Source: Raphidiopsis brookii D9
GTDB taxonomy: Bacteria > Cyanobacteriota > Cyanobacteriia > Cyanobacteriales > Nostocaceae
Length of the DNA: 32,000 nt
Assembly (NCBI GenBank): GCA_000175855.1
Contig: ACYB01000004.1
Coordinates: forward strand, 111,801-143,800
Direction of reading: 5' to 3'
The position numbers and the translations under genes are program-made. Shown here piece after piece: positions 1,020 through 23,401 of the stretch. How positions within the stretch are numbered: the first letter of the stretch is position 1; each line of letters opens with the position of its first letter. Under the pieces are notes generated by a model. That model searched no databases. It saw only the letters and a program-made list of their open reading frames with translations, and was not told where the DNA came from.

Positions 1020-1447
1020 TCAAATGTGATAAAGTCGATATCAGCTCGGTCAGATTCCTTGGGGTCATGCTCTATGTCAGCAATATTGAGGACAAGATTG
1101 AGATTTTGACTCACCCCCTGAAAAGCCATCCAAATACCCGGGGGAATCGTCAGGCGACGATAATCTTGATCTTCGGGAGAAAGAATGAAAGATTCAACCC
1201 TTCCATAACTTGTTGATTCTGGACGATCATCATACAAAACAAACCGAATACACCCACAGGGAACAACCAGATTAAGGGTCATTTGGTTATGGCGTTTCCA
1301 AGGTTTAATTGTTCCATAGTGAATGGTTGAAAAATAAGCCTCACCAAATTTTACGTAACCTGGATCAGATGCTTTGATTCCATGCAAGACATCACCTGCA
1401 TCCGAAGGAATACGTCGAATAGGGGTTAGAATTACACCGTCTAACAT
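1001..1447 (-). CDS. small RmlC-like cupin sugar-nucleotide epimerase/isomerase (3,5-epimerase-like or WxcM/FdtA-like)
   Basis: The track ORF is 1001..1540. The ATG at 1447 (MLDGVILTPIRR...) overlaps the rfbG stop (ATGTTAG) and gives a 148-aa protein of typical cupin size. The sequence is beta-rich (GDVLHGIKAS, GEAYFSTIHYGTIKPWKRH). The assignment rests on general resemblance and context, not on a strict motif. Confidence 0.55.
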   Translation of the reverse strand: MLDGVILTPIRRIPSDAGDVLHGIKASDPGYVKFGEAYFSTIHYGTIKPWKRHNQMTLNLVVPCGCIRFVLYDDRPESTSYGRVESFILSPEDQDYRRLTIPPGIWMAFQGVSQNLNLVLNIADIEHDPKESDRADIDFITFDWSLKP

Positions 1448-3459: not shown

Positions 3460-5280
3460 CTATAAGAAAACCGACAGGGTTTGATCGGATGTTTGATTTA
3501 ATCCTGCCAGGAATTTCTGGCGAATTTTTCGAAATTCATCGTCATACCACTGGGTATCAGTCAGAAAAACCTCTTCTAAACGCTGACAGAGGTTTTTAGG
3601 GGAGACCGACCTTAGTATAGGAAATTCATTTTCTAGGAAATCTCCATAATTCCAGGACGAGGTTAGTTCGCGTCCCAAAGATATGGCTACGCGGCCTGAC
3701 AGTAAGACATCAATAATAGATGCAGTGGACATTACTAAACAGCAGCGGGAAATTTTTAATAAATCTGTCATTTCACCTTCACACCATTGCCAGTCCTGGG
3801 GTAAATCAGTCCATCCCATGTGAGACAGAAGGATGTTGATTTCTCTGCGGGACATCATGGGATGAGGCTTGAGAATCACAGAAGATTTAAGATAATTACG
3901 AACCCAATCGAAATGAGCATATATTCCATCTAGCATCTCCACTGCGCCCTGCAGATCTAAGGGTAAGGGAATACCCAGACAGTTACCACTGTTTTCAGTT
4001 GCAGTTTGGACAAAGTTCTGTCTTAAACCTGGTCCTGACAAAAGTTTTTTTTCATCAAGTCCCCGGGAAATCAAGACTGAATGACCCAAACCACCATTTG
4101 TAACAATTATATCGGGGAAAAACTTCGACTCTGACTCGCCCAAAGGAATGTGATATCCCAAAAAATCTGAAGCTACCAGACTATGATAATAACCTATGGA
4201 CTTGCTTTTGTTTCCGAGTACAAATCTACAAAAATAGGGTTGAACCCGCTCTGGTTGCATTGATTCAAAATGGGTAATTGAAACCAGTTTTGTCAGATTA
4301 TTTCCCCATCGCCGTAAAGCCGGAAGATACAAAAGAAAACGGGAAACAGAAATCCCGGTGGTTAACTGTCGAAAACGTTCCCTGATGAGTAAGAACTCCA
4401 GATGAAAATTATCTTTATATGGAATAGATTTGCGGATAGTTGAAACTGTTTTAATTCCATCGTAGAAAGCCCTCACGTAATCACGCCATGTTAGCCAATC
4501 TTCTGGAAGAAAACAGGAAGAATCACGGAGTTTTTGATACACCTCTTCTAGTGGTAGGGAAACATTGTAAAGCCAAGGTAGACGATAAACTTGCTTACCC
4601 TGCTTTTCTAGCCATTCTGGTAAAACAGTAAAGTATCTACAGGCAAGCGGCCCATCTTTGTTGAAAGCTTTATCATCCAGACATTGGTTGATTAGATATA
4701 CTTCGCCTTGGGGAGGTTGTAAATTAAAAGGGCGAGAAATTTGAGCAGCCCTATGGTGTTTCCAGAACTGAAGAATTTGCCGGGCAAAATTCACACAGGC
4801 CCTGAGGATGAGATAACTAGTCTCGAATGCCATAGTGATCTGCCATCCAATCTGGCAGCGAAGTTGAACAGTCGATTCTAGATTTGTCTTAGCTGCTGCG
4901 AGGACATAGCTATTTTCACAAACAACTAAAATCTCGTCTGGATAGGAGGCGTTTGTGGTAATCCATGACTTAAGAGCTGAAATGTGGATAACATCATCAA
5001 AAAACCGACAGGACACGTTGTTACGCCCCGCTAAGTCGGTCATCCACCAGTGTATAGAGTCGTTATTAGCCTCCCGTTGACGACGAATCCAGTCAAGAAT
5101 TAATGGACGTTGCCTGATAGACTCGATTTGAATAAATTCCTTCAGGGAAATGCGATTGCCAACCAATTGCTTTTCCCAAGTTTTCATCCTAAGGTAATCT
5201 CGTCCGATGTAAATCCAAGGTCCCTTCCAAGATTTGGAATTAAGGTTTAGAAAATGAGTATGAGTTAGAAAAATACACAT
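3460..5280 (-). CDS. large uncharacterised protein, possible GT-B-like glycosyl/ulosonyl transferase
   Basis: 606-aa ORF; an alternative ATG at 5187 gives 575 aa. I can tie no motif to a named family. The C-terminal third (SSVILKPHPMMS ... LVMSTASIIDVLLSGRVAISLG) resembles the x-HP nucleotide-sugar-binding half of TagF/KpsS/sialyltransferase-type enzymes. The CDS itself is likely real (long ORF, operon context), but the function is speculative. Confidence 0.45.
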   Translation of the reverse strand: MCIFLTHTHFLNLNSKSWKGPWIYIGRDYLRMKTWEKQLVGNRISLKEFIQIESIRQRPLILDWIRRQREANNDSIHWWMTDLAGRNNVSCRFFDDVIHISALKSWITTNASYPDEILVVCENSYVLAAAKTNLESTVQLRCQIGWQITMAFETSYLILRACVNFARQILQFWKHHRAAQISRPFNLQPPQGEVYLINQCLDDKAFNKDGPLACRYFTVLPEWLEKQGKQVYRLPWLYNVSLPLEEVYQKLRDSSCFLPEDWLTWRDYVRAFYDGIKTVSTIRKSIPYKDNFHLEFLLIRERFRQLTTGISVSRFLLYLPALRRWGNNLTKLVSITHFESMQPERVQPYFCRFVLGNKSKSIGYYHSLVASDFLGYHIPLGESESKFFPDIIVTNGGLGHSVLISRGLDEKKLLSGPGLRQNFVQTATENSGNCLGIPLPLDLQGAVEMLDGIYAHFDWVRNYLKSSVILKPHPMMSRREINILLSHMGWTDLPQDWQWCEGEMTDLLKISRCCLVMSTASIIDVLLSGRVAISLGRELTSSWNYGDFLENEFPILRSVSPKNLCQRLEEVFLTDTQWYDDEFRKIRQKFLAGLNQTSDQTLSVFL

Positions 5281-8475: not shown

Positions 8476-9444
8476 CTAAAAGATTTCGGTATAATTTCGA
8501 GCCGGCTTCGCTGAGTCGAGTCCAATTATTGCGGCACGTCCCATTGCTAAAACAGCCTCCCCGGTGCTTCCCCCAATGTGTCCAGTGGCAATCAAATTAG
8601 GTAAATTGAGAAGTTCCAAATCCAGTGGTGGCTCTTCATTAAATACGTCTAATGCGGCTCCCGCCAAGTAGCCATCTTTCAAAAGCTGCTTGAGACCAGA
8701 CTCGTCTACAATCCCACCACGAGCAAAGTTAATGAGACATGCTCCTTTTTTCATTAGTTTTAACCGCTCAAGACTAAACATCTTGCGAGTGGAGATATCC
8801 AGGGGGAGATGAATGGTTACCACATCTGCATCAGAAAGAAGGTCTTCTAACGATACTGGAACAATGTCTTTGGCTATATAGAACTCTGCATAGTTCTTGA
8901 TATCGTGTGCGAGAATACGACAACCAAACCCACTTAACAAAATGGCAACCTCTTTACCAATGTGACCGCAACCGACTATGCCAACTGTCTTTCCAGTTAG
9001 TTGACGACCTTGTAATTGCCGCCATTGACCTGCTCGTACTTCCGCATGACTTTCGGAAGTTCGATGCAATAAGGAAATCGCAGCGGCAATAACCATTTCC
9101 GCCACAGAGCGCCTGTTTACCCCACCTTTCCAACCTAATTGGACTCCGTGACGATCCATAGCTTCAAGATCAATCGTGTCTAGTCCGACTCCATACTTGC
9201 TGATAACTTTCAATTGAGGTAGCTGTGCTAAAAGATTTTCGTCAATTTTCTCAAGCGCAGTGATGGCTTTGTCGTGACCTTGTAGAAACTCTACAAGGTC
9301 ATTTCCTGCCAATACTTGGCCAGATTCGTTAAATGTTACTTGTGCGTAACTGGCAAGAAGTTCTTGACGTAGATCGAAATGACGCGAAAACGAACGGGAT
9401 GTAACGGCAACTCGGCTAGTTGTATTAAGTACTTTATTAGCCAT
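8476..9444 (-). CDS. D-isomer-specific 2-hydroxyacid dehydrogenase (PGDH/GHPR-like)
   Basis: 322 aa with NAD motif GKTVGIVGCGHIGKEVA, NFARGGIVDE and the catalytic His context ATGHIGGST. The start overlaps the upstream stop as ATGGCTAA. Confidence 0.85.
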   Translation of the reverse strand: MANKVLNTTSRVAVTSRSFSRHFDLRQELLASYAQVTFNESGQVLAGNDLVEFLQGHDKAITALEKIDENLLAQLPQLKVISKYGVGLDTIDLEAMDRHGVQLGWKGGVNRRSVAEMVIAAAISLLHRTSESHAEVRAGQWRQLQGRQLTGKTVGIVGCGHIGKEVAILLSGFGCRILAHDIKNYAEFYIAKDIVPVSLEDLLSDADVVTIHLPLDISTRKMFSLERLKLMKKGACLINFARGGIVDESGLKQLLKDGYLAGAALDVFNEEPPLDLELLNLPNLIATGHIGGSTGEAVLAMGRAAIIGLDSAKPARNYTEIF

Positions 9445-10528
9445 AGGGAAGCACGTCTAAAAAATAGTTATTACAGATAGTACAAAACTCCTCAGAATTA
9501 TCGATCAGTGTGCGTTTCGGCAGACCTGCAGCGTCAAGCAAAATCAAGCTTAGTTGAGTACCAATATTCTTTTTATCTTTGCTAAGGGCAGCAAAAAACC
9601 TATCTCGCGGAACCTCAACCGTATGAAATCCTTCAGAATTTTTCATTAATGTGGGATGCATTCGATTAAAGTGATCATCGGAAACATGACCCAATTGCAT
9701 GGCGACGTGATTTGCAAGATCCATCCCTATAGTAACCGCAATTCCATGTGGAACAAAAAAATCAGTTGCAGCTTCTATAGCATGTCCAAAACTGTGACCG
9801 TAATTCATAACGTTGCGCGGACCAGTGTCAAATTCATCTGATTCAATAAAGGTTTTCTTTATTTCAAGCGATCGATTTATAAAATACCGAAGTAGATTAT
9901 GATCAGTTTTTAACTGATCCTGGACTGCGGCAATTTCGTCATAATGACTGGGCCCTGCAATTGCGTGAACTTTCAATATTTCTCCAATTCCCGAGCGAAA
10001 GTCGACTTCCTTAAGAGTTTTCAAGATATCAGGATCGATGGTAATCTGATTCGGTGGGCAATAGGTCCCTAGAATGTTCTTGACAGGTCCCACATTAATT
10101 GAACTTTTTGAGCCTATACAGGAATCAGCCTGGGCCAGGAGAGTTGTAGGATAAAACTCCCACGCCACCCCCCGTAGCAAAGTAGTTGCTAAAAAAGCTG
10201 TGATGTCCTGCGTGATTCCGCCACCAATAGCAATTAGCCGATGATCACGACGCATGGACTGACTGACAAGAGCTTCTACATATCCGGTGAAGCGGTCAAG
10301 AGTCTTTGCTGACTCAGTCGCCTCAATAACCAGTGCCGAACTACCACTAATAATCGGATTAAGAACTTCATGATAAATTGCAACAACGTTAGCATCAATA
10401 ATAAAGTGTCGCTTTTCATGCGATTCCAAAGCTAGAAGATGTAGCGCATTTTGCGCATATCTTACTGTGTAAGAACCACGATGAGACTGAATAACGAGTG
10501 CTTCACACACGAACGAATCCTCCATCAA
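9437..10528 (-). CDS. 3-dehydroquinate-synthase-like enzyme (sugar-phosphate cyclase superfamily)
   Basis: 363 aa with IAIGGGITQDITAFLA, PTTLLAQADSCIGSKSSIN, GIGEILKVHA, NYGHSFGHAIEA and PHGIAVTIGM. These are collinear with AroB nucleotide, substrate and metal (E, H, H) motifs. The genomic context is a glycan locus, not the shikimate pathway. Confidence 0.8.
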   Translation of the reverse strand: MMEDSFVCEALVIQSHRGSYTVRYAQNALHLLALESHEKRHFIIDANVVAIYHEVLNPIISGSSALVIEATESAKTLDRFTGYVEALVSQSMRRDHRLIAIGGGITQDITAFLATTLLRGVAWEFYPTTLLAQADSCIGSKSSINVGPVKNILGTYCPPNQITIDPDILKTLKEVDFRSGIGEILKVHAIAGPSHYDEIAAVQDQLKTDHNLLRYFINRSLEIKKTFIESDEFDTGPRNVMNYGHSFGHAIEAATDFFVPHGIAVTIGMDLANHVAMQLGHVSDDHFNRMHPTLMKNSEGFHTVEVPRDRFFAALSKDKKNIGTQLSLILLDAAGLPKRTLIDNSEEFCTICNNYFLDVLPYG

Positions 10529-11215
10529 TGACTAGCCTCTGACCACTTATGTAAGTGTTTTCTGGACTACACAGCCAGCAAACAAGCGATGCAACTTCCT
10601 CCGCTTGTCCAAGACGACGGGCTGGGATGCGATCTGCTAGGTCGGCTATCCCCTGCGTACCAAGTATACTCCGAGTTAGTTCGGTATCGATGAATCCTGG
10701 TGCCACACAATTAGCCAAAATACCGAACTGAGCAACCTCTGCGGCTAGTGCCGCTGTCATACCGTCTATGGCAAATTTGCTGGTTGAATAGGAGGCCCGA
10801 TGTTCTCTGCTAACAATGCCAAAGATCGAACTTACATTTACTATACGACCCCACCTTTGCTCCAGCATGTATGGAATTACAGCCTGACAAAGCCGAAATG
10901 GTGCACGAACATTAACTAGATGTATCAAGTCAAAGTCTTTAGGTGCTATGTTAGCAAAAGGCGCAACTTTGTTAATACCAGCATTGTTGACAAGAATATC
11001 AAACTTCGATGAACGAATTTTATCAACAAAAGACTCAGTAGCGTGAGTATCAGCAAAGTCCACTGGATAGAAACTCATGCCATCCGGTCTCTTACCACTC
11101 CTGTTTGTTCCTGTTATGGTCACAGAAGCACCTTGAACAAGCAAGCGATCTGCTATTGCAGCACCAATTCCGCGGGTTCCCCCGTCACCAAAGCCTTTCG
11201 ACCACTAAGGTTCAT
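10503..11215 (-). pseudogene. classical SDR oxidoreductase interrupted by a 1-nt frameshift in a C5 (G5 on the coding strand) homopolymer
   Basis: The ATG at 11215 reads MNLSGRKALVTGEPAELVLQ and stops at 11153-11155. Shifting one base after the five-C run (plus strand 11179-11183) reads GTRGIGAAIADRLLVQGASVTITG and runs into track ORF 10503..11144, whose listed M is an internal TTG. One extra G would restore the SDR motif ALVTGGTRGIG. Downstream are LVNNAGI and YSTSK (YxxxK). Confidence 0.7.
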
Positions 11216-11224
11216 ATAAATTAA

Positions 11225-12295
11225 TTATTTATTAGCACTTTTGTCTGGCTGATCTGTAAAGTTCTCGGGGTGCATTATAAATCGTGCATTCCACTCCTTA
11301 TCGGCATGATAAATTTGCTCGACAAGTTCCATTGTTTTGTAAGCATCCCAGGAGGAACCACTTGCAACCGGTTTCTGCTCGACAATGCAATCAACAAAAG
11401 AAGATATTTCGTCTGGCCAGGAATGGTCAATATTAAATCTAGTCATCTGTTCCCTGGGATCCCCACCATCGTTCTCATCTGCATAAACTACGGTGATCGT
11501 TTCTGCACCATAACTACGACTATTTGTGAGGATGCCGGATAGCATGATTGCTCCTCGTCCCAAGGTGATATCAAGCTGAAATCGGTGACGCCACTGTGTG
11601 GCAGATGAGTGAAGCATGGCGACTATTCCGGAATAAGTTCGCATAAGTACGTAGGCATTATCTTCGACATCATGATGCCAGAAATCATTCTTGACGAAGC
11701 TGTAAACATCAGAGAACTCTCCAGCAAATAGTCGCATCATATCTACCATGTGGATGCCCTGGTCAAGAAGGATTCCACCCCCGGCTTTGTCTCTCTGAGT
11801 GCGCCATTCGTTGGTGTCAAAGCGGATAATTTTTGACTTGCCATAGACACCGCGTAAGTCCAGCACCTTCCCCAATTCTCCACTTTGAATAATACGCAGT
11901 GCCTCCTGAACTGAATCGTGGTAACGATGATTGAAACCATACATAAGCCGTTGATCAGGATGGCGTTTTTCACATTCAATTACAGCACGGATGTCATCGA
12001 CATTTCTTCCAGGCGGCTTCTCGCAAAAAACGTGTAGTCCCCGCTCAAGACCAGCTATTGTAACGGTAGGTGCCAGGTAATTTGGTAGACAGACAAATAG
12101 GATGTCTATGGATTCTTTAATCAGACTATCAAAATCAGGGTAAAAACGGACACCATCATCAAACTTGCCTGCTTCCGCAAAGCTCCTGTCACAAACAGCA
12201 ACAACCTCAAGTTTGGGATGAAGGTTGGAATACTTATGGCGAACTTTTCCAATGATCCCATAACCCGCAATACCGACCTTTAACTTACCGCCCAT
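11225..12295 (-). CDS. Gfo/Idh/MocA-family NAD(P)-dependent sugar oxidoreductase
   Basis: 356 aa with N-terminal Rossmann KVGIAGYGIIGK and the family EKP motif (VFCEKPPG). It lies 3 nt downstream of the preceding stop. Confidence 0.85.
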   Translation of the reverse strand: MGGKLKVGIAGYGIIGKVRHKYSNLHPKLEVVAVCDRSFAEAGKFDDGVRFYPDFDSLIKESIDILFVCLPNYLAPTVTIAGLERGLHVFCEKPPGRNVDDIRAVIECEKRHPDQRLMYGFNHRYHDSVQEALRIIQSGELGKVLDLRGVYGKSKIIRFDTNEWRTQRDKAGGGILLDQGIHMVDMMRLFAGEFSDVYSFVKNDFWHHDVEDNAYVLMRTYSGIVAMLHSSATQWRHRFQLDITLGRGAIMLSGILTNSRSYGAETITVVYADENDGGDPREQMTRFNIDHSWPDEISSFVDCIVEQKPVASGSSWDAYKTMELVEQIYHADKEWNARFIMHPENFTDQPDKSANK

Positions 12296-12298: not shown

Positions 12299-13846
12299 TC
12301 AGCACCTTTTTTTCGAAAGTTCTTGATACCAGCCTACAGCCGATTCCAATCCGTCCCGTAATATAGCACAATCAACTCTATAGGAAACAAACCGAAACCC
12401 AGCATCAAGTAGCAGTTCTATATATTTGGGGTCACGCGCAACCGATCCAGCGGCTAAACCGCAGTCTTCAATCAGCTTTACATAGTCGCGCATGATTCGA
12501 AGGACCTTAGTATTTGTAAGGTCACCCGGTACGCCACAGGACTGAGACAGATCATAGACTCCAAGATAGATCATGTCCAAACCCGGGACTTTAGCAATTT
12601 CTGGAATATTGCTAACCCCCTCTACACCCTCAACAAGTATGCCAACAAGCATTTGTTCATTCGCATATTGGAGCTTTTGCGGCAAGTTTTGATCAGAATA
12701 GCCATGGTTTCTTGTAAAGGGTGACAGCCCCCGATCGCCGTCGGGGAAATACTTACATGACTTAACAATGCGCTCGGCTTGGCTCGCTGTTGACACTTGG
12801 GAGACAAGTATAGACTGGGCACCAATTTCCAAAGCATGAAGGATATGAGGCGCGTGATCTTCAGCAAGCCGAATAATCGGTTCAATGCCACCAGACTCCG
12901 CAGCATAAAGTTGGTTCTCAGCCGTCTCGAAACTGGTAGGTCCGTGTTCCAAATCAACAATCACGAAGTCGAGACCAGTTGTTGCTATTACGTTTAGCAC
13001 TGCTGGGGAAGACAGCATAGACCAGGTCCCAAAAACTCGCCCTCCGGATTTTAGGGTCTCTTTAACCTTATTAATTTTCTCACGTGTTTGCTTTCCTGAA
13101 TAGGATGGGTAAAAAGGGTCACTACGCATCGCATTCTCCGCTTCTAATCGATCCGGTTCAGTATCAACTGATACACTTTGGAAGCTAGAATGAATTGCCC
13201 GAACCTTGATGCCATGTTCGACGGCGCGAAGAAGCTCGATAGACTCGACTTTTTCGTAAGGCATCATTTCCATTGATTCAAAGTCAACCAGAAACTTCTT
13301 GCGGAAAGGCATAATCGCTACCTGTTTGAGACGAGGACCAATCTGGCTTCGTGTATTTGAAGGGACAGGACTGCGAGTCATGAATAGTATGTTATCAAAT
13401 TTGTCGACAAGTACCTTGACTTCGTTTGAATCGAGCCACTCGTTTTCATTTGCTTCTGCAACAAGGGTTCCAAGCTGGATATGGGGATCCTTTAATAGGG
13501 GTTCAACTGCGAGGTTGATCATGTCTGGATGAACAAGCGGTTCATCTCCTTGAACCACCACTACAATATCGTCGTCTGCAAGGTTGAGTTGTTTGCATGC
13601 CTCGGCAACACGGAGACCAGGTCTGGAAATATCTGGATGAGTCATCAGAGCCTGAGCTCCAAATTTTTCAACAGTGTCTTTAAGAATTTTGTCGCAGCAT
13701 GCGATGAAAATAGAATCTATGTTCTTGGCTAATAAACAACGCCTGTATACGTGCTCAATCATGGGCATACCTAGTATGTCGCAAAGAGGTTTGCCCGGAA
13801 ATCTAGATGCCCCCATTCGGGCTGGGATACCGACAACTACTTTCAT
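12299..13846 (-). CDS. bifunctional fusion: KdsB-like cytidylyltransferase (N) plus HpcH/HpaI class II pyruvate aldolase (C)
   Basis: 515 aa. Residues ~1-245 are collinear with KdsB along its whole length (GIPARMGASRFPGKPL, VVVVQGDEPLV, ESIELLRAVEHGIKV, SVDTEPD). Residues ~265-515 are collinear with HpaI/HpcH (VIVDLEHGP, conserved Arg in IIRL, metal ligands in ILVEG and LGVYDLS). Confidence 0.8.
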   Translation of the reverse strand: MKVVVGIPARMGASRFPGKPLCDILGMPMIEHVYRRCLLAKNIDSIFIACCDKILKDTVEKFGAQALMTHPDISRPGLRVAEACKQLNLADDDIVVVVQGDEPLVHPDMINLAVEPLLKDPHIQLGTLVAEANENEWLDSNEVKVLVDKFDNILFMTRSPVPSNTRSQIGPRLKQVAIMPFRKKFLVDFESMEMMPYEKVESIELLRAVEHGIKVRAIHSSFQSVSVDTEPDRLEAENAMRSDPFYPSYSGKQTREKINKVKETLKSGGRVFGTWSMLSSPAVLNVIATTGLDFVIVDLEHGPTSFETAENQLYAAESGGIEPIIRLAEDHAPHILHALEIGAQSILVSQVSTASQAERIVKSCKYFPDGDRGLSPFTRNHGYSDQNLPQKLQYANEQMLVGILVEGVEGVSNIPEIAKVPGLDMIYLGVYDLSQSCGVPGDLTNTKVLRIMRDYVKLIEDCGLAAGSVARDPKYIELLLDAGFRFVSYRVDCAILRDGLESAVGWYQELSKKRC

Positions 13847-13848: not shown

Positions 13849-14643
13849 TTAGAAACTCCTTCGAATCGGCAATGTCCGTACAAATCGATTGGTCAACTCT
13901 CCTAGCCCGGAAACGCGGGCTGTGTAAATATCGTCATCACCAAGAAAACGCATACCCACGGTATCAGGAGGATTGCCAGTCAGCACTAAGTCCCAAGGAT
14001 TAAGGGTCATCCAGGTCGACAACCAGGAGATAATACGCTGCCACTGCCAGAACTGATCACTTGAACGACCTCTGCGGATTACCTCACCGTTCTGTATTGC
14101 TTCAATCACACAATCGGATGCGTCAAATTCGGTGTCAATCCAGGGACCTACTGCGCAAAATTTATCTGCACACTTGGATCGTGCTAAGTGATGGTCACGG
14201 TGATCAACGTTTTCCACCGTAGTATCATTAGCAATAGTGAAGCCAAGAATGCCTTCGCGAGCTTCGCAGTCGGAAATGTTACGCAGCCTTTTGCCAATTA
14301 CAACTGCTAGTTCGGCTTCGCCCCACCAAGAAAGCCCAGGAAAAGGATTCTCTACTGTATCCCCTGGACCGCAAATGCACGAAGGTGGCTTGACAAATAC
14401 CAAGGGTTCGGACATGGTGGGTGAAAAATGAAGGATGCCAGGAAAGTTGATTGCGACACAAATAATCTTAGCAGGCTGGCACGGAGAGACCAGTCGCAAG
14501 TCCTCAATGCTACCTACCATTTTTCCAGCGTGGGTATTTCCAGATAGAATATCTCCCTCCAACTCAAATACATTACCGTCTTTGACTACACCATTGTGTA
14601 CGCCCCCTGGGGGGTTATGAGTAACGTAACGAACAATTTTCAT
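13849..14643 (-). CDS. fumarylacetoacetate hydrolase (FAH) family protein
   Basis: 264 aa with PLVFVKPPS, GEAELAVVIGK (E-x-E metal pair), IANDTT, AVGPW and LNPWDLVLTGNP. A TAGGAG Shine-Dalgarno sits upstream of the ATG. Confidence 0.8.
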   Translation of the reverse strand: MKIVRYVTHNPPGGVHNGVVKDGNVFELEGDILSGNTHAGKMVGSIEDLRLVSPCQPAKIICVAINFPGILHFSPTMSEPLVFVKPPSCICGPGDTVENPFPGLSWWGEAELAVVIGKRLRNISDCEAREGILGFTIANDTTVENVDHRDHHLARSKCADKFCAVGPWIDTEFDASDCVIEAIQNGEVIRRGRSSDQFWQWQRIISWLSTWMTLNPWDLVLTGNPPDTVGMRFLGDDDIYTARVSGLGELTNRFVRTLPIRRSF

Positions 14644-14691: not shown

Positions 14692-15297
14692 TCAAGCAAT
14701 TAACCTAGCCTTGGGAATAGGTTTAACCTCTAAATCTTTACCTAAGACCTCACATAACCACTGCATACAGATATGTCCCACAATCAACTGTAAGTCCTCG
14801 GCAATTTGCATATCATTCACCGGAAAGTGAATAGGAATTTGGGCCAAGTCCTTACACCTTCCCCCAGAAAATCCTAAAATAGCACAGGTCACCATACCTA
14901 AATTATTACCTACCTCCAATGCCTTAACTACATTAGGAGAATTACCACTGCCAGATAAAACAATTAGCACGTCACCTATTTCTGCTTTAACTCGTAGTTG
15001 CTGAGCATAAATTTGCTCATAGCCCAAGTCATTAGCCAAACAGGTCAGAATGGCCGAGTTAGCTGCTAATGCCTCTACACGAAGACCTAAACCAGCCTGC
15101 ATCCCTGCACCATAAATCAAGTCATTGGCTAAATGAACCGCATTACCTGCACTTCCTCCGTTACCACAAAGGTAAACGACTTTTCCTTGAAGCCAGGCAT
15201 TTCTTAATGCTTCTCCCAGATTCGGGATCAACTGCATTGCTTGTTGATCCAGTGCATACTTGAGGCTATCAGCATAACTTTGAATATAGTTGTACAT
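14692..15297 (-). CDS. SIS-domain sugar-phosphate isomerase, GmhA (sedoheptulose-7-P isomerase)-like
   Basis: 201 aa, collinear with GmhA-type SIS proteins: LCGNGGSAGNAVHLANDL, VLIVLSGSGNSPNV, AILGFSGG, IAEDLQLIVGH. It is the first gene of operon B. Confidence 0.8.
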   Translation of the reverse strand: MYNYIQSYADSLKYALDQQAMQLIPNLGEALRNAWLQGKVVYLCGNGGSAGNAVHLANDLIYGAGMQAGLGLRVEALAANSAILTCLANDLGYEQIYAQQLRVKAEIGDVLIVLSGSGNSPNVVKALEVGNNLGMVTCAILGFSGGRCKDLAQIPIHFPVNDMQIAEDLQLIVGHICMQWLCEVLGKDLEVKPIPKARLIA

Positions 15298-17156: not shown

Positions 17157-17870
17157 TCATGCTTTCCGGAGCAAAAATTCTGCCCAATATAAGTCCGGTA
17201 ACTCATCAATTTCCAGTCCCTGTTCCGCATCTATCTCATACATGAATGTTGAACTGTTCACAAAACTCCTATTTTCTTCTATGAAATCTAAGGATGCAAT
17301 ATAGATTGACCCATTAATATAGTAAAATGACTCTTTATAGTCCTGTCTTCTATTTGAAGATCGGGTGTAATCTGTGAGGTAAGACCATTTTTGTCCAATA
17401 CCTCTTATACAATCGTATGGATGTTCTCTCATCTTATGAACACTTGTGAGACTTTGTAGTTGATTCGATAAGTAAAAATTGACTGCCAAATCTATATCTT
17501 CTGCTGTCCTTAAAGGACTTGTAGGTTGAAGGAGTACTATAGTTTTAGGAATGAAACTATCATGCAGTTCAATCCATTGTAATAAGTCAATTACAGATTC
17601 TATAACTTCAGACTCATCCGTAGCCAGTTTTGCTGGGCGTTTATAGGAAGAGTATAAACCTAGAGATCTACCTAAGCTAATAATGTCTTCGTCATCAGAT
17701 GAAAGCATAACTTTACTAATTGATTTAGCTGCCTTAGCCGCTTCTATTGTGTAAGCTAGAAGCGGTTTACCATTAAGCTCAATTAGGTTCTTTTTAGGAA
17801 TTCCCTTTGACCCTCCTCTAGCAGGTATAATAGCTAATACAGGTTGTGCATTCAACGACATATCTTTCAT
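17157..17870 (-). CDS. legF: acylneuraminate (nonulosonate) cytidylyltransferase, NeuA/LegF-like
   Basis: 237 aa with AIIPARGGSKGIPKKNL and VLLQPTSPLR, the CMP-NeuAc synthetase signatures. The start overlaps the upstream stop as ATGA. Confidence 0.85.
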   Translation of the reverse strand: MKDMSLNAQPVLAIIPARGGSKGIPKKNLIELNGKPLLAYTIEAAKAAKSISKVMLSSDDEDIISLGRSLGLYSSYKRPAKLATDESEVIESVIDLLQWIELHDSFIPKTIVLLQPTSPLRTAEDIDLAVNFYLSNQLQSLTSVHKMREHPYDCIRGIGQKWSYLTDYTRSSNRRQDYKESFYYINGSIYIASLDFIEENRSFVNSSTFMYEIDAEQGLEIDELPDLYWAEFLLRKA

Positions 17871-18514
17871 ATCCTTTCAAGTTTCATTAATAGGACTTTT
17901 TCGTGGGAATTATGGCTAGTGAGTATATTCGAAACAACTCTAAAGGGTAAATCAGTTTGCAGTTCATCAAGAAAGGTTTCAAAACCTTGAAACCCATCAA
18001 TTACTTGTTTCCCAATTTTCTGATCTTTAGGAAAATACTGCTTAATTGCTAATTTTCCACCGGGATTTAATGACCGCAAAACTTTTTGGAATACACCATT
18101 AATATCATCAAGAATATACCAAATTACCTCTGAAAGCAGAATTAGGTCAAAGCATGATTCTATTTCATCGTACATAATATTTTTGTTTTGAAATTTAATG
18201 GAAGGGTATTTCTGTGTAGCTTTTTGAATTGCTGTCAAAGACACATCGATACCTATCATCTCGATTAAATTCCCCCCCATACTGAGAATTGAAAATACCT
18301 GGTATGTAGCATCACCTGTCCCACAGCCAATGTCTAAAACTTTCTTAGGACTATTAAAGCTTATTTTATTAAAGTTTTCTATAAGCATTAGTCGGAAAAT
18401 TTGATTGTCAAGCGAGTTACAGTGAGCAGCACAACCCCAGGGATCATCAATGTCTTGATACATCTCTTCGAACTGATTATTGATCCAGTATTCCATTGGA
18501 TTTTGATACTTCAT
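17867..18514 (-). CDS. class I SAM-dependent methyltransferase (NodS-like)
   Basis: The track ORF starts at a GTG at 18529. The ATG at 18514 (MKYQNPMEYW) has a GGAGAG Shine-Dalgarno 7 nt upstream. Motif I is VLDIGCGTGDATYQ, followed by IGIDVS and PGGKLAIKQY. Confidence 0.8.
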   Translation of the reverse strand: MKYQNPMEYWINNQFEEMYQDIDDPWGCAAHCNSLDNQIFRLMLIENFNKISFNSPKKVLDIGCGTGDATYQVFSILSMGGNLIEMIGIDVSLTAIQKATQKYPSIKFQNKNIMYDEIESCFDLILLSEVIWYILDDINGVFQKVLRSLNPGGKLAIKQYFPKDQKIGKQVIDGFQGFETFLDELQTDLPFRVVSNILTSHNSHEKVLLMKLERI

Positions 18515-18578
18515 TGCATAGCTCTCCACATTGTACTAGTTGTTAATGGAAAATGTTACGGGAATCTAATTGCTATTT

Positions 18579-19706
18579 TTAGCAGGCTGCCAGTTCTGTT
18601 GCTAACTGATCGTAAAACTTAACATCTTTCTTTAAGAGGATAGGAATGGCTACATATTTGCTAAGAGCAGCCTGAGTGTTATAAGACCTACTAAGATTCG
18701 TGTTATCCAGAACATGGTTCCAGTAATAAGAACAGTGCCACTTCATTGAATCAGGAATATTTTTGGTTCCCAAGCCTCTTTTTTTGAGAATATTAATACA
18801 ATTTTCAATTCGTTCGGAAGATCCTGGTTGAAACATTAATGTATCGTAGGTTGGCACTGATTCCGGCTGTGATAGTCTTATGCTGAAGGATCGAGAGAGT
18901 CGGGAATAAATGGTTTCGTAGCGAAGCTTGTTTTGATTTAGCATAAAAGTAAGTTTGCTCAGCTGTACTTTACCTACGGCAGCTTGTAACTCTGTCATCC
19001 GATAGTTAAAACCTGGCATAATGGCATTATCTGATCCCCTTGGAACACCATCTAACAGTGCATGTCCGTGATCTGAGTAGCTAGAAACATATTTGTGATG
19101 TTCTACCTGACGAGTTAAAACACAGCCTCCTTCTCCAGTTGCAATCATCTTTCCGTGATCAAAGCTAAAAACACCTATATCACCTATTGTGCCAAGATAT
19201 TTACCTTTATAACTGGCCCCTACGGACTCGCAATTATCCTCAAGAACTGGAATGTTATGGCTATGTGCAATCTCTAAAATTTTGGAAACATCTCCACACA
19301 TACCCAACATGTGTACTGGAATGATAGCAGCTGTCTTGCTTGTGATCAAAGATGCGACAGAATCGGGGCAAATATGCAGATTATTATTAACATCTGCGAT
19401 TATTGGAACCGCGCCACAATCAGCAATAGCTTCTACAGTTGCAATAAAGTTGAAAGATTGGGTAATGACTTCGTCACCCGCAGAGACACCAAGTGCCTTT
19501 AAAGCACATTTGATTGCGGCCGTCCCACTAGAAACAGCATTTGTGTATGGAGAACCAAAATACTGCGATAGTAAATCTTCAAATTCTCTAACATGATATC
19601 GTTTACGTAATGAATCAAAACCATGAGCAAACAGGATACCGCCTTCCGAAAAGACCTCTTGTACTGCGTCAGACTCATGGTGATCGTATAGCTCAAATCC
19701 AGGCAT
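18579..19706 (-). CDS. second DegT/DnrJ/EryC1/StrS-family PLP aminotransferase
   Basis: 375 aa with SSGTAAIKCALKALGVSAGDEVI, PLP-lysine context FSFDHGKMIATGEGG and NYRMTELQAAVG. The N-terminal region (FAHGFDSLRKRYHVREFE) differs from that of the LegC-like paralogue at 24555-25742. Confidence 0.8.
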   Translation of the reverse strand: MPGFELYDHHESDAVQEVFSEGGILFAHGFDSLRKRYHVREFEDLLSQYFGSPYTNAVSSGTAAIKCALKALGVSAGDEVITQSFNFIATVEAIADCGAVPIIADVNNNLHICPDSVASLITSKTAAIIPVHMLGMCGDVSKILEIAHSHNIPVLEDNCESVGASYKGKYLGTIGDIGVFSFDHGKMIATGEGGCVLTRQVEHHKYVSSYSDHGHALLDGVPRGSDNAIMPGFNYRMTELQAAVGKVQLSKLTFMLNQNKLRYETIYSRLSRSFSIRLSQPESVPTYDTLMFQPGSSERIENCINILKKRGLGTKNIPDSMKWHCSYYWNHVLDNTNLSRSYNTQAALSKYVAIPILLKKDVKFYDQLATELAAC

Positions 19707-19751
19707 AATTCTTTTCGACTTGCTTTACAAAAATTCTTTCTTTCGGTAGAA

Positions 19752-20510
19752 CTACAATGTGATGTTTAAATCTCGATTCAGCCGGATCATATTTTGATAC
19801 CACTCATGATGGCCCTCAGAAACCTTATCGGATAAAGAGTACAGAGAAAACCGTACAACCCAAGCTCGGGTCGCAGACAAGGGTGTCAATTCAGCATAAT
19901 GTCTGCTATAAGGATTATGTATACTACAATCGCCAGGGTAATAAACAAAGTCTCTGAGACAGGATTCAGTCCAATTGATGCTGGTTTTTATAGTCAGAGA
20001 AAAACCTGATGCATTAGATAGCTGATGTTCATACGACTGTCCATGTGGAGTGGAAATATACCTAAGACCACCTTCTGAAGGATATTGAGGATTGATGGGG
20101 ATATAAAATGTAAGTGCGCTTCCCCTTTCGAGTCCGTAATAGGCATTATCCTGATGCAATGGTATAATTTCAGATCCAGGGAATCTGCTATGTATTTCCA
20201 TGCTTCTTAGAAAGACTGACTCACCAAGTAAAAACTCAGCTGCACTGAATAGTTGAGAGGTAACAAATTTACCAAATAAATCAGTGTTTACGGCTAATGG
20301 ATATTCAAAATATTTAATAGCAGGCTTTGAATTAAAAGTGTTACACGAAAGCCCTCGTTTATCAGATTGATATTTTTTAATAATATCAAGTTCGTTAGCT
20401 TCTAACCACGTGTAGGCATCAGCACATAAGTTTTTGTTGGCAAAAGAAGGAATAAAAGTGACGGAGTCTTTTTTAATTTGGTTGAGGTGATTTTCCGTAA
20501 GTGTAGTCAT
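19752..20510 (-). CDS. PhyH-like Fe(II)/2-oxoglutarate-dependent oxygenase
   Basis: 252 aa with the H-x-D iron motif in IPLHQDNAYYG and distal His candidates in CSIHNPYSRHYA. Size and pattern fit the phytanoyl-CoA dioxygenase family. Confidence 0.65.
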   Translation of the reverse strand: MTTLTENHLNQIKKDSVTFIPSFANKNLCADAYTWLEANELDIIKKYQSDKRGLSCNTFNSKPAIKYFEYPLAVNTDLFGKFVTSQLFSAAEFLLGESVFLRSMEIHSRFPGSEIIPLHQDNAYYGLERGSALTFYIPINPQYPSEGGLRYISTPHGQSYEHQLSNASGFSLTIKTSINWTESCLRDFVYYPGDCSIHNPYSRHYAELTPLSATRAWVVRFSLYSLSDKVSEGHHEWYQNMIRLNRDLNITL

Positions 20511-20586
20511 AGCGATGTGAAGTTTTGAGGTAATGTGATTAAAGTCTGCAATCTTGCACTAGTTGTACATATTAAGTAATAGGATC

Positions 20587-21636
20587 TTAAAAGGATCTTA
20601 ACTCTTCATTAGCTCTTTCCAAATCGCTCATTCTGCCAATATCTAACCAATATTCCCGCAAGGGATAAGCAGCAGTTGTACGGGTATCTACTACAAGTTG
20701 CTGAAACAGACTTGGCATGTCAAAGAAGGTTCCACTAGGTACATAATCCAACACACCTGGAGATAGAGCATAAATACCAGAGTTAACAAAAAAATGCTGT
20801 ACAGGCTTCTCTTCTATAGACTTAATCTTTGTTCCATCCACACGCACAACACCATAAGGAACTTGCAAATCGTACTCACGAACCGCCATAGTCGCTAAAA
20901 CACCTTGGAGTTCATGAAACTGGAGCAAATTATCGAAACGTGTACGGGTCAAAATGTCTCCATTCATCACAATTATGGGTAAATTGGGCTTCTTCGGTAA
21001 AAGGGATAAGGCTCCAGCAGTTCCTAAACGTTCTTTTTCGCGTAAGTAGGATATTTCCACACCCCATTGATCGCCATTTTTAAAATAGTCTTCTATCATC
21101 TCAGCTTTGTAGTTAACAGAGAGAAATATCTGTTTAAACCCCTGTTCAGCAAAGTTCTCAATGATAATTTCTAAAATCGGTTTACCCCCAACTGTCAGTA
21201 GCGGTTTAGGACGGTCTTTTGTCAAAGGATATAATCTGGTTCCTAAACCTCCCGCCATGATCACCACCCAATTGGGTCGCTCTAATATACCAATTAAATC
21301 ATCTAGGGTTGCTAAATCCACTACTTGATGTTCTGCATTAACTAGCGGTAAGTGATGGATCACCTTACGGCGCATTAGTGCCAACATTTCACTACGGGGC
21401 ACTGATTCTAGAACAGTAGTAGGTTGGGAATTCATGACCTCACAAACGGGAACATCTAGGTCTTTTCCTGACAAGATGAAACGACGAATGTCACCGTCGG
21501 TAACAAGACCCCCTAATGTATTATCAGGATTTAAAACCAGTGCAACCTGGAGAGCAGACTTATCTATCTTGGCGATCGCCTCTCTTAGGGGAGTTTCTCG
21601 AAAAACAACAACATCTTGCCATTTTGTTTTAGCCAT
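20587..21636 (-). CDS. ptmE: CBS-pair plus nucleotidyltransferase, PtmE-like sugar-1-phosphate guanylyl/nucleotidyl transferase
   Basis: The track ORF starts at 21669. The ATG at 21636 (MAKTKWQD) overlaps the upstream stop as ATGGCTAA. Two CBS-like repeats (LVTDGDIRRFIL, HHLPLVN) are followed by IMAGGLGTRLYPLTKDRPKPLL. Confidence 0.8.
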   Translation of the reverse strand: MAKTKWQDVVVFRETPLREAIAKIDKSALQVALVLNPDNTLGGLVTDGDIRRFILSGKDLDVPVCEVMNSQPTTVLESVPRSEMLALMRRKVIHHLPLVNAEHQVVDLATLDDLIGILERPNWVVIMAGGLGTRLYPLTKDRPKPLLTVGGKPILEIIIENFAEQGFKQIFLSVNYKAEMIEDYFKNGDQWGVEISYLREKERLGTAGALSLLPKKPNLPIIVMNGDILTRTRFDNLLQFHELQGVLATMAVREYDLQVPYGVVRVDGTKIKSIEEKPVQHFFVNSGIYALSPGVLDYVPSGTFFDMPSLFQQLVVDTRTTAAYPLREYWLDIGRMSDLERANEELRSF

Positions 21637-22270
21637 GATTAACTCCAGTCTTGACTGCAGGATTACCAACTACAATACAACCATCAGGTATGGATTTCGT
21701 TACTATAGATCCCGCTCCAACAATAGTGTTTTCACCAATAGAAACACCAGGAAGCACCACCGCACCTGCACCGATAAAAGCACTGTTAGAAATTCTGATA
21801 TCACCACAAAGGGTTACCCCTGGTCCAATAAAAGCATGGGATCCAATTAAACAGTCATGATCAACCTTACATCCAGTGTTAATAACCACATTTTCCCCTA
21901 AAATAACCCCCGGTTGTAAAATCCCACCTGCCATGATTTGGCAACCTTCGCCCAGTTTCGCCGCACTACTGATGATAGCTGACGGGTGTTGTACACGGTT
22001 AAAGGTGAAAAACCGAGATTTCATAATTTCAAATATCTTTTGTCGTCTAAATATGTAGGGATTAGCGCCCAATCCATTTACTAAAGAAATTTCGGTGGTG
22101 GGTAAATTGTTTAAATATTCATCACCTCCTAAAACGGGAACTCCCAGGACTGCTGTAGTTTGGGGTTGAGGATCTAAAACTCCCATAACTTCAACACCGT
22201 TCGCAAGGAGTATGTCTAAGACAACTTTTCCATGACCTCCTGCACCTAGAATATATATCGGTTTAGTCAT
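21629..22270 (-). CDS. legH: NeuD/PglD/LegH-type sugar N-acetyltransferase (left-handed beta-helix)
   Basis: 213 aa with N-terminal IYILGAGGHGKVVLD and C-terminal hexapeptide repeats (IGENVVINTGCKVDHDCLIGSHAFIGPGVTLCGDIRISNSAFIGAGAVVLPGVSIGENTIVGAGSIV). Confidence 0.85.
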   Translation of the reverse strand: MTKPIYILGAGGHGKVVLDILLANGVEVMGVLDPQPQTTAVLGVPVLGGDEYLNNLPTTEISLVNGLGANPYIFRRQKIFEIMKSRFFTFNRVQHPSAIISSAAKLGEGCQIMAGGILQPGVILGENVVINTGCKVDHDCLIGSHAFIGPGVTLCGDIRISNSAFIGAGAVVLPGVSIGENTIVGAGSIVTKSIPDGCIVVGNPAVKTGVNHG

Positions 22271-23354: not shown

Positions 23355-23401
23355 GTAGTTATTGAATTGGAAAGTATTTTCCCCAAAATATACTATTTCC
23401 G

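Follow-up and report, generated by a model that had tools for sequence, protein, structure and literature searches.

The fused reading frame and its surroundings

The window, a stretch of 32,000 nt from the genome of Raphidiopsis brookii D9, contains a deposited reading frame that joins a KdsB-like cytidylyltransferase to an HpcH-like aldolase within a surface-glycan module. The frame, its two parts and the neighboring genes are:

12299..13846, minus strand: deposited 515-aa ORF with the KdsB-like and HpcH-like parts in a single frame (GenBank EFA74432.1, Raphidiopsis brookii D9)
13091..13846, minus strand: KdsB-like cytidylyltransferase part, aa 1-252 (Pfam/NCBIfam); the homologous C-terminal tail ...DPFYPSYSGK stops here
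12299..13074, minus strand: HpcH/HpaI-type class II aldolase part, aa 258-515 plus stop (Pfam/NCBIfam; alignment to solved aldolases)
13849..14643, minus strand: FAA-hydrolase-family gene, its stop abutting the start of the fused ORF; conserved module member
14692..15297, minus strand: GmhA-like SIS sugar-phosphate isomerase; module member
11225..12295, minus strand: GFO/IDH/MocA oxidoreductase, 3 nt downstream of the fused ORF; follows HpcH in relatives too
9437..10528, minus strand: AroB-related putative sugar-phosphate phospholyase (TIGR04425, 484.5 bits against a cutoff of 400); module member
8476..9444, minus strand: PGDH-like D-2-hydroxyacid dehydrogenase, the commonest partner of the KdsB-like clade (22 of 29 loci)
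3460..5280, minus strand: 606-aa conserved protein with a predicted GT-B fold; homologs carry Pfam PF27859 (LIC12162 family)
237..2517, minus strand: CDP-glucose block (RfbF 237-1019, cupin 1001-1540, RfbG 1441-2517), conserved at the module end
17157..26767, minus strand: separate canonical legionaminic-acid block (LegB, LegC, NeuC-type epimerase, NeuB-type synthase, NeuD-type acetyltransferase, PtmE-like gene and its own CMP-synthetase)

The NeuB gene at 22263-23405 is part of the legionaminic-acid (Leg) block, and this block includes a CTP_transf_3 gene of its own. The SIS, GFO and SDR genes may belong to the Leg pathway as PtmF (GFO-type oxidoreductase) and PtmA (SDR); however, these genes accompany the KdsB-like module even where Leg genes are absent.

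Two full-length domains in the deposited frame

A Pfam search with the 515-aa ORF placed CTP_transf_3 at aa 7-214 (E = 3.7e-43) and HpcH_HpaI (PF03328) at aa 273-494 (E = 2.5e-29, 102.6 bits). The NCBIfam models of the KdsB subfamily span aa 1-242 and those of HpaI, RhmA and GarL aa 258-507, and both halves are therefore full length. The KdsB half contains IPARMGASRFPGKPL (aa 7-21), QGDEP (99-103), ESIELLR (201-207) and VDTEPD (227-232). Of these, IPARMGASRFPGKPL, QGDEP and VDT align to the CTP motif and Mg-binding Asp of KpsU, placing this half in the CTP_transf_3 fold. The motifs of the aldolase half are DLEH (298-301), IIRL (324-327), LVEGVEG (404-410) and GVYDLS (429-434). Here DLEH, IIRL, the VEG at about 405-407 and the YDL at about 431-433 align with the catalytic and metal-binding His, Arg, Glu and Asp columns of 7v8t and other solved HpaI-type aldolases.

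The preliminary description had read this region as one uninterrupted 515-aa ORF fusing a full-length KdsB-like to a full-length HpcH/HpaI domain, which is true of the deposited sequence on the minus strand and is borne out by the Pfam and NCBIfam coverage. The HpaI landmarks that it listed (D.EH, the Arg, and the Glu and Asp metal ligands) are present and match the solved enzymes. All of its KdsB landmarks were found in order as well, although it had spaced the N-terminal motif wrongly by one residue, and the linker, given as about 20 aa, is actually about 10 residues long (aa ~250-259).

The junction differs from close relatives at two sites

We aligned the DNA of the junction to that of the closest relatives (designated L021, L022 and L023). 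Three positions matter:

13088..13090, minus strand: codon 253, CAA (Gln), at the exact site of the KdsB-like TAA stop in L021, L022 and L023
13081..13083, minus strand: GTG, the HpcH start in L021 and L022 (ATG in L023); out of frame in D9 as deposited
13075..13078, minus strand: A4 run (A5 in L021, A7 in L023, AAAG in L022)

Relatives at 81-86% identity read ...TCA GGA AGG TAA, four nucleotides, then GTG AGA AAA ATC, and D9 reads ...TCA GGA AAG CAA ACAC GTG AG- AAA ATT. Two differences set D9 apart from its closest relatives at the junction, namely the TAA that has become CAA and the A5 run that is one base short. This 1-nt deficit brings the HpcH frame into register with the KdsB frame, and it shifts the ancestral GTG out of the reading frame. 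An SD-like AGGAAAG is located 8-14 nt upstream of this GTG in D9. In the deposited frame ATG, GTG and TTG are all absent from aa 240 to 277, and the peptide across the join is ...YSGKQTREKINK..., following a KdsB-like tail that aligns to ...DPFYSRYSGR* of L021. The preliminary description had named a missed stop or frameshift near 13080-13120 as the mark of two genes joined by assembly, and comparison with the relatives essentially finds this: an A-run deficit at 13078-13075 and CAA for TAA at 13090-13088, in a 454/GS20 assembly.

When one A is put back, the region splits into a KdsB-like protein of 258 aa (...REKN*) and an HpcH of 261 aa. The restored HpcH begins M-RKINKVKETLKSGG, matching V-RKINKIKQTLKSGG of L021, and its start lies 16 residues ahead of the VFGTW strand, as it does in L003 and L004. 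Exact look-up of the two hypothetical split proteins gave no match in the searched collections, and a junction DNA pattern allowing A4 or A5 revealed no other copy there. The T5 run at aa 244 was discarded as a candidate error site, as the deposited-frame DPFYPSY matches DPFYLQY of L014.

The D9 genome was sequenced with 454/GS20 to 27x coverage, supplemented by fewer than 1000 Sanger reads, and its authors mention “454/Roche technology intrinsic errors”. As a local control of indel quality we used the SDR gene 2 kb from the junction:

10503..11215, minus strand: SDR gene, frameshifted within the TGxxxGIG Rossmann motif
11179..11183, minus strand: G5 run within the SDR gene, where relatives have ACG GGN GGN ACC

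A -1 shift in this G run splits VTGGTRGIG between frames, and one extra G yields an intact 237-aa SDR. Every other gene of the module is full length and in a single frame in the alignment, with 49-86% identity to relatives.

The pair is conserved but unfused in related loci

KdsB-like and HpcH-like genes occur together, but unfused, in 22 of 22 related loci from several unrelated phyla, among them the relatives at 81-86% identity and one finished cyanobacterial genome. In 20 loci the genes are adjacent, 11 in the order KdsB to HpcH and nine in the order HpcH to KdsB, usually with a spacing of 15-95 nt; in the remaining two the pair is 1.8 kb apart (L063) or on opposite strands (L016). Both alternative cassettes found at the same cyanobacterial locus carry the pair. 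That the two enzymes are functionally linked has good support: the pair is adjacent in both orders, it is present in both alternative cassettes, and the catalytic motifs of both halves are intact. The pair was seen in cyanobacteria, Omnitrophota, Syntrophorhabdaceae, Gammaproteobacteria and many metagenomic lineages, and across phyla it is embedded with methyltransferases, CDP-glucose genes and the GT-B protein. One candidate from these neighborhoods, a 384-aa protein of L045 considered as an inositol-phosphate synthase, is a NanM-type O-methyltransferase.

Searches of 5.8 billion clusters and of 1.84 billion representatives found no second KdsB-HpcH fused protein. The D9 protein was the only two-domain match in the protein search, and its 90% cluster has a single member. 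All of the best 150 matches of an exhaustive search have one domain only; any relative with both would have gained from the two scores combined and come out on top. A database search for the same domain order, the check proposed in the preliminary description, thus returned only the D9 protein as fused.

Several candidates were rejected on inspection. P0028, P0074 and P0085 (513-527 aa), which match in two stretches and could have been fusions in reverse order, are tandem HpcH duplications. P0002 lies on a contig full of frameshifts (L001, coverage 0.18), and its KdsB frame stops at ...FQLYRRG* ahead of HpcH. P0004, an apparent HpcH-GFO fusion, is a read-through on a nanopore/pilon contig with a further GFO frameshift; it illustrates how indels create pseudo-fusions in a compact operon. 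The genomic context of P0011 is unrelated.

Origin of the fused frame

We consider the fused ORF to be probably a homopolymer undercall artefact; a recent event specific to the strain is less likely. In the artefact case, D9 would carry the KdsB-like and HpcH-like genes as two tightly packed, translationally coupled genes, as all relatives do. The KdsB stop probably did change from TAA to CAA, harmlessly, and the A missing from the A5 run just past the HpcH GTG was most likely lost to a homopolymer undercall of 454/GS20 sequencing. Once this A is restored, the KdsB-like protein would run 7 codons further to a TAA and overlap the 261-aa HpcH by 14 nt, and HpcH would keep its own GTG start and Shine-Dalgarno-like motif. 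We infer the sequencing error at the D9 junction and do not see it directly; by a rough estimate, a sequencing error would be anywhere from equally likely to about four times as likely as a natural slip. A natural slip in the same A run would look identical to an undercall. Against an artefact, substitution of a stop codon is unusual as a 454 error, and A4/A5 is short for a consensus undercall at 27x. The stop substitution is also the precondition for a real -1 deletion to give a viable in-frame fusion.

Such a real fusion, in which the stop changed to CAA and a natural 1-nt slip in the A5 run then produced a recent, strain-specific bifunctional cytidylyltransferase-aldolase, appears rather unlikely to us. 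It would account for a deposited ORF that is intact with complete catalytic motifs, for a stop loss and a frame change that jointly yield an in-frame product, and for an AF2 model in which both domains are folded confidently (mean pLDDT 90.2) and joined by a short flexible linker (253-255, pLDDT < 50). The enzymes are moreover pathway partners, so that a fusion should be tolerated. However, none of the 22 relatives is fused and the fused protein was not found elsewhere in the searches, the event sits in a homopolymer of a GS20 assembly, an equivalent -1 disrupts the neighboring SDR gene, and D9 retains both the ancestral GTG start and the SD-like motif. The pTM of 0.56 likewise gives no sign of a defined inter-domain arrangement. 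We regard it as more improbable still that the cassette is decaying, with the junction and SDR frameshifts both real in the reduced genome of D9 and the fused ORF a by-product in a non-functional pathway. Two -1 events lie less than 2 kb apart, a Tn5-family transposase and a truncated oxidoreductase adjoin the locus, and the cassette varies between strains; yet the other module genes are all intact, stop codons or larger deletions are absent, and both events are of a kind that pyrosequencing errors would produce.

Whether artefact or real, the fusion is not a conserved architecture and hence gives no evidence for channelling. The preliminary description had suggested channelling from synthesis to activation: the functional linkage of the enzymes stands, as described for the 22 loci and the two cassettes, and the fusion as an evolved channelling feature does not. 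As a fusion, the D9 protein deserves little weight, being probably a pyrosequencing artefact and at best an accident of one strain, and EFA74432.1 should neither serve as “Rosetta-stone” evidence for channelling nor be propagated as a bifunctional annotation. The lasting result is the consistent pairing of a KdsB-type cytidylyltransferase with a class II aldolase in a conserved, uncharacterised glycan module, which lies in a cassette-swapping surface-sugar locus of bloom-forming cyanobacteria.

A candidate pathway to a second CMP-activated acidic sugar

The N-terminal half resembles KdsB and KpsU (E. coli K-CKS, 1gq9; A. aeolicus KdsB, PMC3149649) in fold, length, the Lys equivalent to K19 and both Mg-binding Asp, residues whose roles, including that of Lys19 in the CTP motif, are described for KdsB (PMC3149649). 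It scored 132 bits against E. coli KpsU 1gq9. Unlike these enzymes, it stays below the cutoffs of both CMP-Kdo synthetase equivalogs (kdsB TIGR00466, 136.7 < 155.2; NF003948, 145.9 < 281) and lies in an accessory glycan island, not with kdsA, kdsC and waaA. Only the subfamily model NF003952 was passed (219.9 > 193); NF009905 was narrowly missed (248 < 255). In the alignment, LKHVGIYAY and ESLEQLR of KpsU correspond to LKQVAIMPF and ESIELLR in D9. We take these positions to contact Kdo, and the substitutions are a weak lead toward a different substrate.

The aldolase half shares the PF03328 TIM barrel and the His/Arg/Glu/Asp columns with HpaI/HpcH, YfaU (RhmA) and GarL (7v8t, 2vws, 2v5j, 1dxe). 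It scored 111-124 bits against solved HpaI/YfaU aldolases (solved enzymes overall, 87-124 bits). While HpaI, RhmA and GarL are catabolic, the D9 aldolase is found in a biosynthetic glycan context and falls far short of the HpaI/RhmA/GarL equivalog cutoffs (HpaI, 150.6 < 368.8; the others 121.2 < 441, 115 < 393 and 111.5 < 406.75).

That the halves are merely unrelated housekeeping or catabolic neighbors, one a genuine CMP-Kdo synthetase serving LPS and the other an HpaI that degrades aromatics, is highly improbable. NF003952 would indeed name the N-terminal half KdsB, and the combination of FAH and HpcH recalls the hpa catabolic pathway. Every equivalog cutoff (kdsB, NF003948, HpaI) was missed, however, and the pair is embedded in the glycan module across phyla; kdsA, kdsC, kdsD and waaA are absent from the window and the surveyed related loci, and hpa genes are absent as well.

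The pair sits in a conserved glycan module beside the legionaminic-acid pathway, and this module most likely makes a second CMP-activated acidic sugar. The HpcH-like enzyme would act as a divalent-metal class II aldolase: from a sugar-derived aldehyde and pyruvate, or a 2-oxo acid like it, it would form a 4-hydroxy-2-oxo acid of the ulosonic type, and the KdsB-like enzyme, using CTP and Mg2+, would place CMP on the C2 hydroxyl of that acid to give a donor for glycan assembly. This system would be distinct from the legionaminic NeuB/CMP-synthetase pair encoded upstream. The two-step logic, in which a 2-oxo acid sugar is made and then CMP-activated, is common to NeuB plus NeuA and LegI plus LegF. 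There the C-C bond former is a PEP-dependent NeuB, whereas the partner here is HpcH and not a NeuB-family enzyme, so that the D9 pair would rely on a class II aldolase that depends on pyruvate. Should this aldolase prove to be the synthase, the pathway would add a third route to CMP-activated acidic sugars to those of the KdsA and NeuB types, and it would point to a new cell-surface sugar.

A more specific proposal is possible, though doubtful: the pair, fused or not, may form the core of a widespread pathway to a new CMP-activated, probably O-methylated ulosonic-type acid sugar, in which a class II pyruvate aldolase replaces the PEP-dependent NeuB/KdsA and, in the D9-type cassette, an AroB-like eliminating (possibly carbocycle-forming) enzyme rather than a phosphatase removes the phosphate. 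Our literature search returned no relevant paper on the HpcH+KdsB pair, on TIGR04425 or on AroB-like genes in O-antigen loci. Among the larger loci of the KdsB-like clade, 14 of 29 have neither HpcH nor NeuB and carry GFO-SIS-2Hacid_dh, so the activated acid may be made by sugar oxidation and not by the aldolase. The variant locus L017 has a short NeuB and a GT29-family gene next to the KdsB-like gene and lacks HpcH, an arrangement that may hint at displacement.

Other fusions of cytidylyltransferase domains

Cytidylyltransferases joined to a barrel that handles 2-oxo acids have a precedent in the phosphonate fusions Fom1 and Ppm, in which a CTP-dependent nucleotidyltransferase is linked to a PEP-mutase-type TIM barrel. 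These proteins belong to other families (MobA/LicC-type transferase; PEP mutase) with other chemistry. They are conserved across many genomes, whereas the D9 fusion is not. Other KdsB-like domains were found joined to a HAD phosphatase (P0138, HAD phosphatase + CTP_transf_3), to a hexapeptide domain (P0149, hexapeptide + CTP_transf_3) and to a 400-aa C-terminal extension (P0006). As in the deposited D9 frame, a partner is fused to the KdsB-like domain in these proteins, but unlike in that frame the partner is HpcH in none of them. Pathway neighbors do at times fuse to the KdsB-like domain.

Domain architecture of the deposited reading frame

Every gene in the window is encoded on the minus strand, including the frame under study and its surrounding glycan module.

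12299..13846, minus strand: deposited ORF, 515 aa, uninterrupted in the sequence
237-15297, minus strand: second module, with the KdsB-like/HpcH pair; order kept in related loci L002, L004, L014/L025, L021-L023 and others

The preliminary description had reported one ORF carrying the motifs of a KdsB-like cytidylyltransferase and of an HpcH/HpaI-type class II aldolase (HpcH), which is true of the deposited sequence. Pfam recognized CTP_transf_3 (aa 7-214, E 3.7e-43) and HpcH_HpaI (aa 273-494, E 2.5e-29), while NCBIfam KdsB subfamily models spanned aa 1-242 and HpaI/RhmA/GarL models aa 258-507. The N-half motifs line up with the catalytic columns of solved KpsU (1gq9, 132 bits) and those of the C-half with the HpaI-type aldolases 7v8t, 2vws and 2v5j (111-124 bits). 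The proposed domain layout stood, the linker measured about 10 residues rather than about 20 aa, and the strand had to be corrected to minus. The protein is identical to GenBank EFA74432.1 from Raphidiopsis brookii D9, the only member of its 90% cluster. AF2 folded both halves confidently from a 16-sequence alignment (mean pLDDT 90.2), with pLDDT under 50 only where residues 253-255 coincide with the codon read through and the former spacer. Since pTM was 0.56 for the 515-aa protein, the relative domain orientation is undefined, and the model speaks neither for nor against active sites that face each other. KdsB enzymes are dimers and HpcH enzymes hexamers.

Two differences at the junction create the single frame

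The three closest relatives are L021 and L022 (86% identity) and L023 (81%). All three read ...TAT TCA GGA AGG TAA, 4 nt, GTG AGA AAA ATC..., so that KdsB terminates and, after a short spacer, HpcH begins in the +1 frame. The D9 junction reads ...TAT TCA GGA AAG CAA ACAC GTG AG- AAA ATT..., with CAA at 13090-13088 where the relatives have the TAA stop, and with their A5 run short by one base (13078-13075). The shortened run brings HpcH into register with KdsB and puts the ancestral GTG (13083-13081) in another frame; the two differences combined produce the single ORF. The deposited frame contains no ATG, GTG or TTG between aa 240 and 277.

Restoring one A yields a 258-aa KdsB-like protein ending in REKN and a 261-aa HpcH starting M-RKINKVKETLKSGG, nearly identical to V-RKINKIKQTLKSGG of L021. 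Sixteen residues separate this start from the first barrel strand, the same spacing as in L003 and L004; 8-14 nt upstream of the start is an AGGAAAG motif. The stop substitution alone would lengthen KdsB by 7 codons and give a 14-nt overlap, similar to the overlaps in L014 and L004. Stop-codon substitutions are not an error of the 454 type, and the TAA to CAA change is probably real in D9.

The fusion was found only in the D9 record

Among matches from 5.8 billion clusters, the D9 protein alone carried both domains. An exhaustive phmmer search of 1.84 billion representatives returned 23,234 matches, and each of the best 150 was a protein of about 250 aa with a single domain; a two-domain relative would head this list, because both domain scores would pool. 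A few two-stretch matches of 513-527 aa were rejected as fusions, being tandem HpcH duplications. Scanning of species-representative genomes and JGI metagenomes gave 57 loci, and none of the 22 fetched loci carrying both genes had a stop-free frame across them. Across these collections the fusion is not conserved. The genes were adjacent in the order KdsB-HpcH in 11 of the 22 and HpcH-KdsB in 9; they were separated by 1.8 kb in L063, a finished 3.86-Mb NCBI genome, and lay on opposite strands in L016. The taxa include Omnitrophota, Syntrophorhabdaceae, a Gammaproteobacteria MAG and cyanobacteria. Adjacency in both orders across loci is good evidence of cooperation between the two enzymes.

Other multi-domain proteins were noted in the representative library: five with two or three tandem HpcH/HpaI domains (P0028, P0074, P0085, P0063 and P0131; 513-1019 aa) and one HpcH + HMGL-like fusion (P0161). 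In L002 (10001-11613, a nanopore/pilon metagenome contig) HpcH runs into a GFO gene that is also frameshifted; this read-through is another indel-made pseudo-fusion in the same compact operon.

Sequencing artefact or recent event

The D9 assembly combined 27x coverage in 454/GS20 reads with Sanger data (188 small-insert, 491 fosmid and 253 finishing reads). The error typical of 454 chemistry is a miscalled homopolymer length. The SDR gene (10503-11215), 2 kb downstream of the fused ORF, serves as a local control. It is broken inside its TGxxxGIG NAD-binding (Rossmann) motif, where a G5 run (11183-11179) leaves MNLSGRKALVTG and GTRGIGAAIA... in different frames. The sequence at this site is ACG GGN GGN ACC in five relatives, and one added G gives an intact 237-aa SDR matching relatives. 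Read against these sequences, the SDR frameshift probably reflects another homopolymer undercall by 454 sequencing in the D9 record. We estimate the balance between a GS20 consensus error and a tolerated natural slip at roughly one to one up to four to one, and on the sequence comparison we favor, with some reserve, a sequencing artefact as the origin of the single ORF.

A real, functional and very recent fusion in D9 is less likely, though the CAA substitution would be the precondition making a natural -1 slip viable. Look-ups by protein, DNA pattern and contig index found no independent copy of the junction. Real frameshifts forming part of cassette decay in D9 are more improbable still. All other module genes align with relatives in one frame, and the module contains 80 runs of at least five identical bases. 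Whichever explanation holds, the two-domain protein does not represent an evolved, conserved architecture. The fusion itself is of low interest, most likely being no real feature and, at best, an accident of one strain; the gene pair and module are of moderate interest in their own right.

Genomic setting

17157-26767, minus strand: complete canonical legionaminic-acid (Leg) block, curated cutoffs passed by the five genes listed next
Leg block, minus strand: LegB, score 541 (cutoff 475)
Leg block, minus strand: LegC, 542 (420)
Leg block, minus strand: NeuC-type epimerase, 482 (236)
Leg block, minus strand: NeuB-type synthase, 487 (400)
Leg block, minus strand: NeuD-type acetyltransferase, 225 (161)
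9437-10528, minus strand: AroB-related 'sugar phosphate phospholyase', TIGR04425 (hypothetical equivalog), 484.5 (400)
3460-5280, minus strand: ~600-aa conserved protein (606 aa), homologs labelled PF27859 (LIC12162 family)

The Leg block also holds a PtmE-like CBS-nucleotidyltransferase and its own CTP_transf_3 gene (PseF/LegF-like CMP-synthetase). An extra DegT aminotransferase, a methyltransferase and a weak PhyH-like dioxygenase are interleaved. The second module runs FAH, methyltransferase, GalE-like epimerase, KdsB-like, HpcH, GFO, GmhA-like SIS, SDR, AroB-related 'phospholyase', PGDH-like 2-hydroxyacid dehydrogenase, ~600-aa protein, methyltransferase, aminotransferase, RfbF, RfbG and cupin. 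The 606-aa protein had no match in the Pfam release searched; its predicted structure (pLDDT 91, pTM 0.90) has a GT-B glycosyltransferase-like fold with large insertions, best matched by GT1 glycosyltransferases and UDP-GlcNAc 2-epimerases, with WaaA and TarL further down. Cyanobacterial homologs occur in Phormidium and Cylindrospermopsis. These are surface-polysaccharide loci, since L016 additionally carries Wzy_C and GT2 genes and L063 GT1 and GT2 genes.

GC content at 15000-19000 drops to 0.34-0.38, lower than the 0.41-0.46 of the flanking module. The dip takes in a 400-aa protein without family match (15903-17105) and a ~600-nt gap ahead of the SIS gene, and is possibly the seam between Leg block and second module. 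The island's high-coordinate edge (26800-31676) holds ORFs of 90 and 146 aa (possibly toxin-antitoxin-like candidates), a 211-aa ORF with nothing left of a DAO-type oxidoreductase but its N-terminal FAD-binding motif, and an intact Tn5-family transposase (30309-31676).

A putative pathway for the gene pair

Both enzymes are intact in D9 and consistently co-located in glycan loci. In the proposed pathway, a divalent metal bound by the HpcH-like enzyme would enolize pyruvate (or hydroxypyruvate) and add it to a sugar-derived aldehyde. Phosphate would be lost, neighboring enzymes would tailor the product by reduction, epimerization and O-methylation, and the resulting ulosonic-type acid would cyclize. 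The KdsB-like enzyme would then place CMP on the C2-OH by a two-Mg mechanism like that of KdsB (PMC3149649). Finally, a transferase would add the sugar to a glycan in which legionaminic acid and a CDP-glucose-derived 6-deoxy sugar would also occur. That the aldolase performs the skeleton-forming step in D9-type loci is a tentative assignment, held slightly short of even confidence.

The logic parallels NeuB plus NeuA, in agreement with the preliminary description. The N-half is predicted to work like KdsB/KpsU but falls below both equivalog cutoffs and lacks Kdo-pathway neighbors; the C-half shares the class II aldolase type with HpaI, RhmA and GarL but is none of the three by curated cutoffs. 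No paper in the literature searched describes the HpcH/KdsB-like pair, TIGR04425 or the module; pair and module are real, conserved and uncharacterized.

Cassette exchange and loci lacking HpcH

We compared window positions 5400-15297 with L063 (GCA_018139025.1, CP073250.1 1747399-1769204). The common flanks are 75-93% identical (LegF-like 93%, 400-aa protein 84%, RfbG 80%, RfbF 83%), whereas the central cassette of L063 differs, with a 2Hacid_dh (33%), epimerase, methyltransferases, HAD phosphatase, HpcH (29%), KdsB-like (41%) and an IS element. By sequence comparison, this is a serotype-like cassette exchange. Because both alternative cassettes at this one locus contain HpcH, KdsB-like and 2-hydroxyacid dehydrogenase genes, the comparison points to this triad as the functional core.

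In the 29 loci of 9 kb or more that carry this KdsB-like clade, the partners were 2Hacid_dh (22), GFO (18), SDR (15), HpcH (14), SIS (14) and AroB-like (13); HpcH and NeuB were both absent from 14 of the 29, which limits the model in which the aldolase forms the acid that the KdsB-like enzyme activates. Candidates for phosphate removal are AroB-like plus SDR in D9-type loci, an IMPase-family phosphatase in L045 (2812-3588) and a HAD phosphatase in L063 (4492-5136). Since this gene type varies among loci, a phosphorylated intermediate is suggested, from which TIGR04425 plus SDR, IMPase-family or HAD phosphatase would interchangeably remove phosphate.

L045 and L046 carry GFO-SIS-2Hacid_dh, a HisC-like aminotransferase and a second GFO, and neither KdsA nor NeuB was seen when they were scanned gene by gene. 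In the HpcH-less clade the activated acid may arise by sugar oxidation (aldose to aldonate to 2-oxo acid), and the module may yield an amino-substituted acidic sugar by this oxidative route. A related HpcH-less module was seen in L045, L046, L047, L051, L052, L037 and L012 (Pelagibacteraceae), consisting of GFO, GmhA-like SIS, SDR plus AroB-like or a phosphatase, PGDH-like dehydrogenase, HisC-like aminotransferase, second GFO, KdsB-like, methyltransferase and a ~630-aa protein.

L017 has a short NeuB and a GT29-family gene beside a FAH-MT-KdsB-like block without HpcH, which is compatible with, though not proof of, replacement of one synthase type by another. Its contig (SRR3715733, 1-9896) comprises GFO-SDR, the short NeuB (233 aa), the GT29 sialyltransferase-family gene, a B12-radical SAM gene, a sulfotransferase-like gene, epimerase, FAH, MT24 and a terminal 631-aa KdsB-like protein, whose C-terminal extension bears an SGGKDS (PP-loop-like) motif. 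A GT29-family gene adjoining a KdsB-like gene is unusual in a bacterium.
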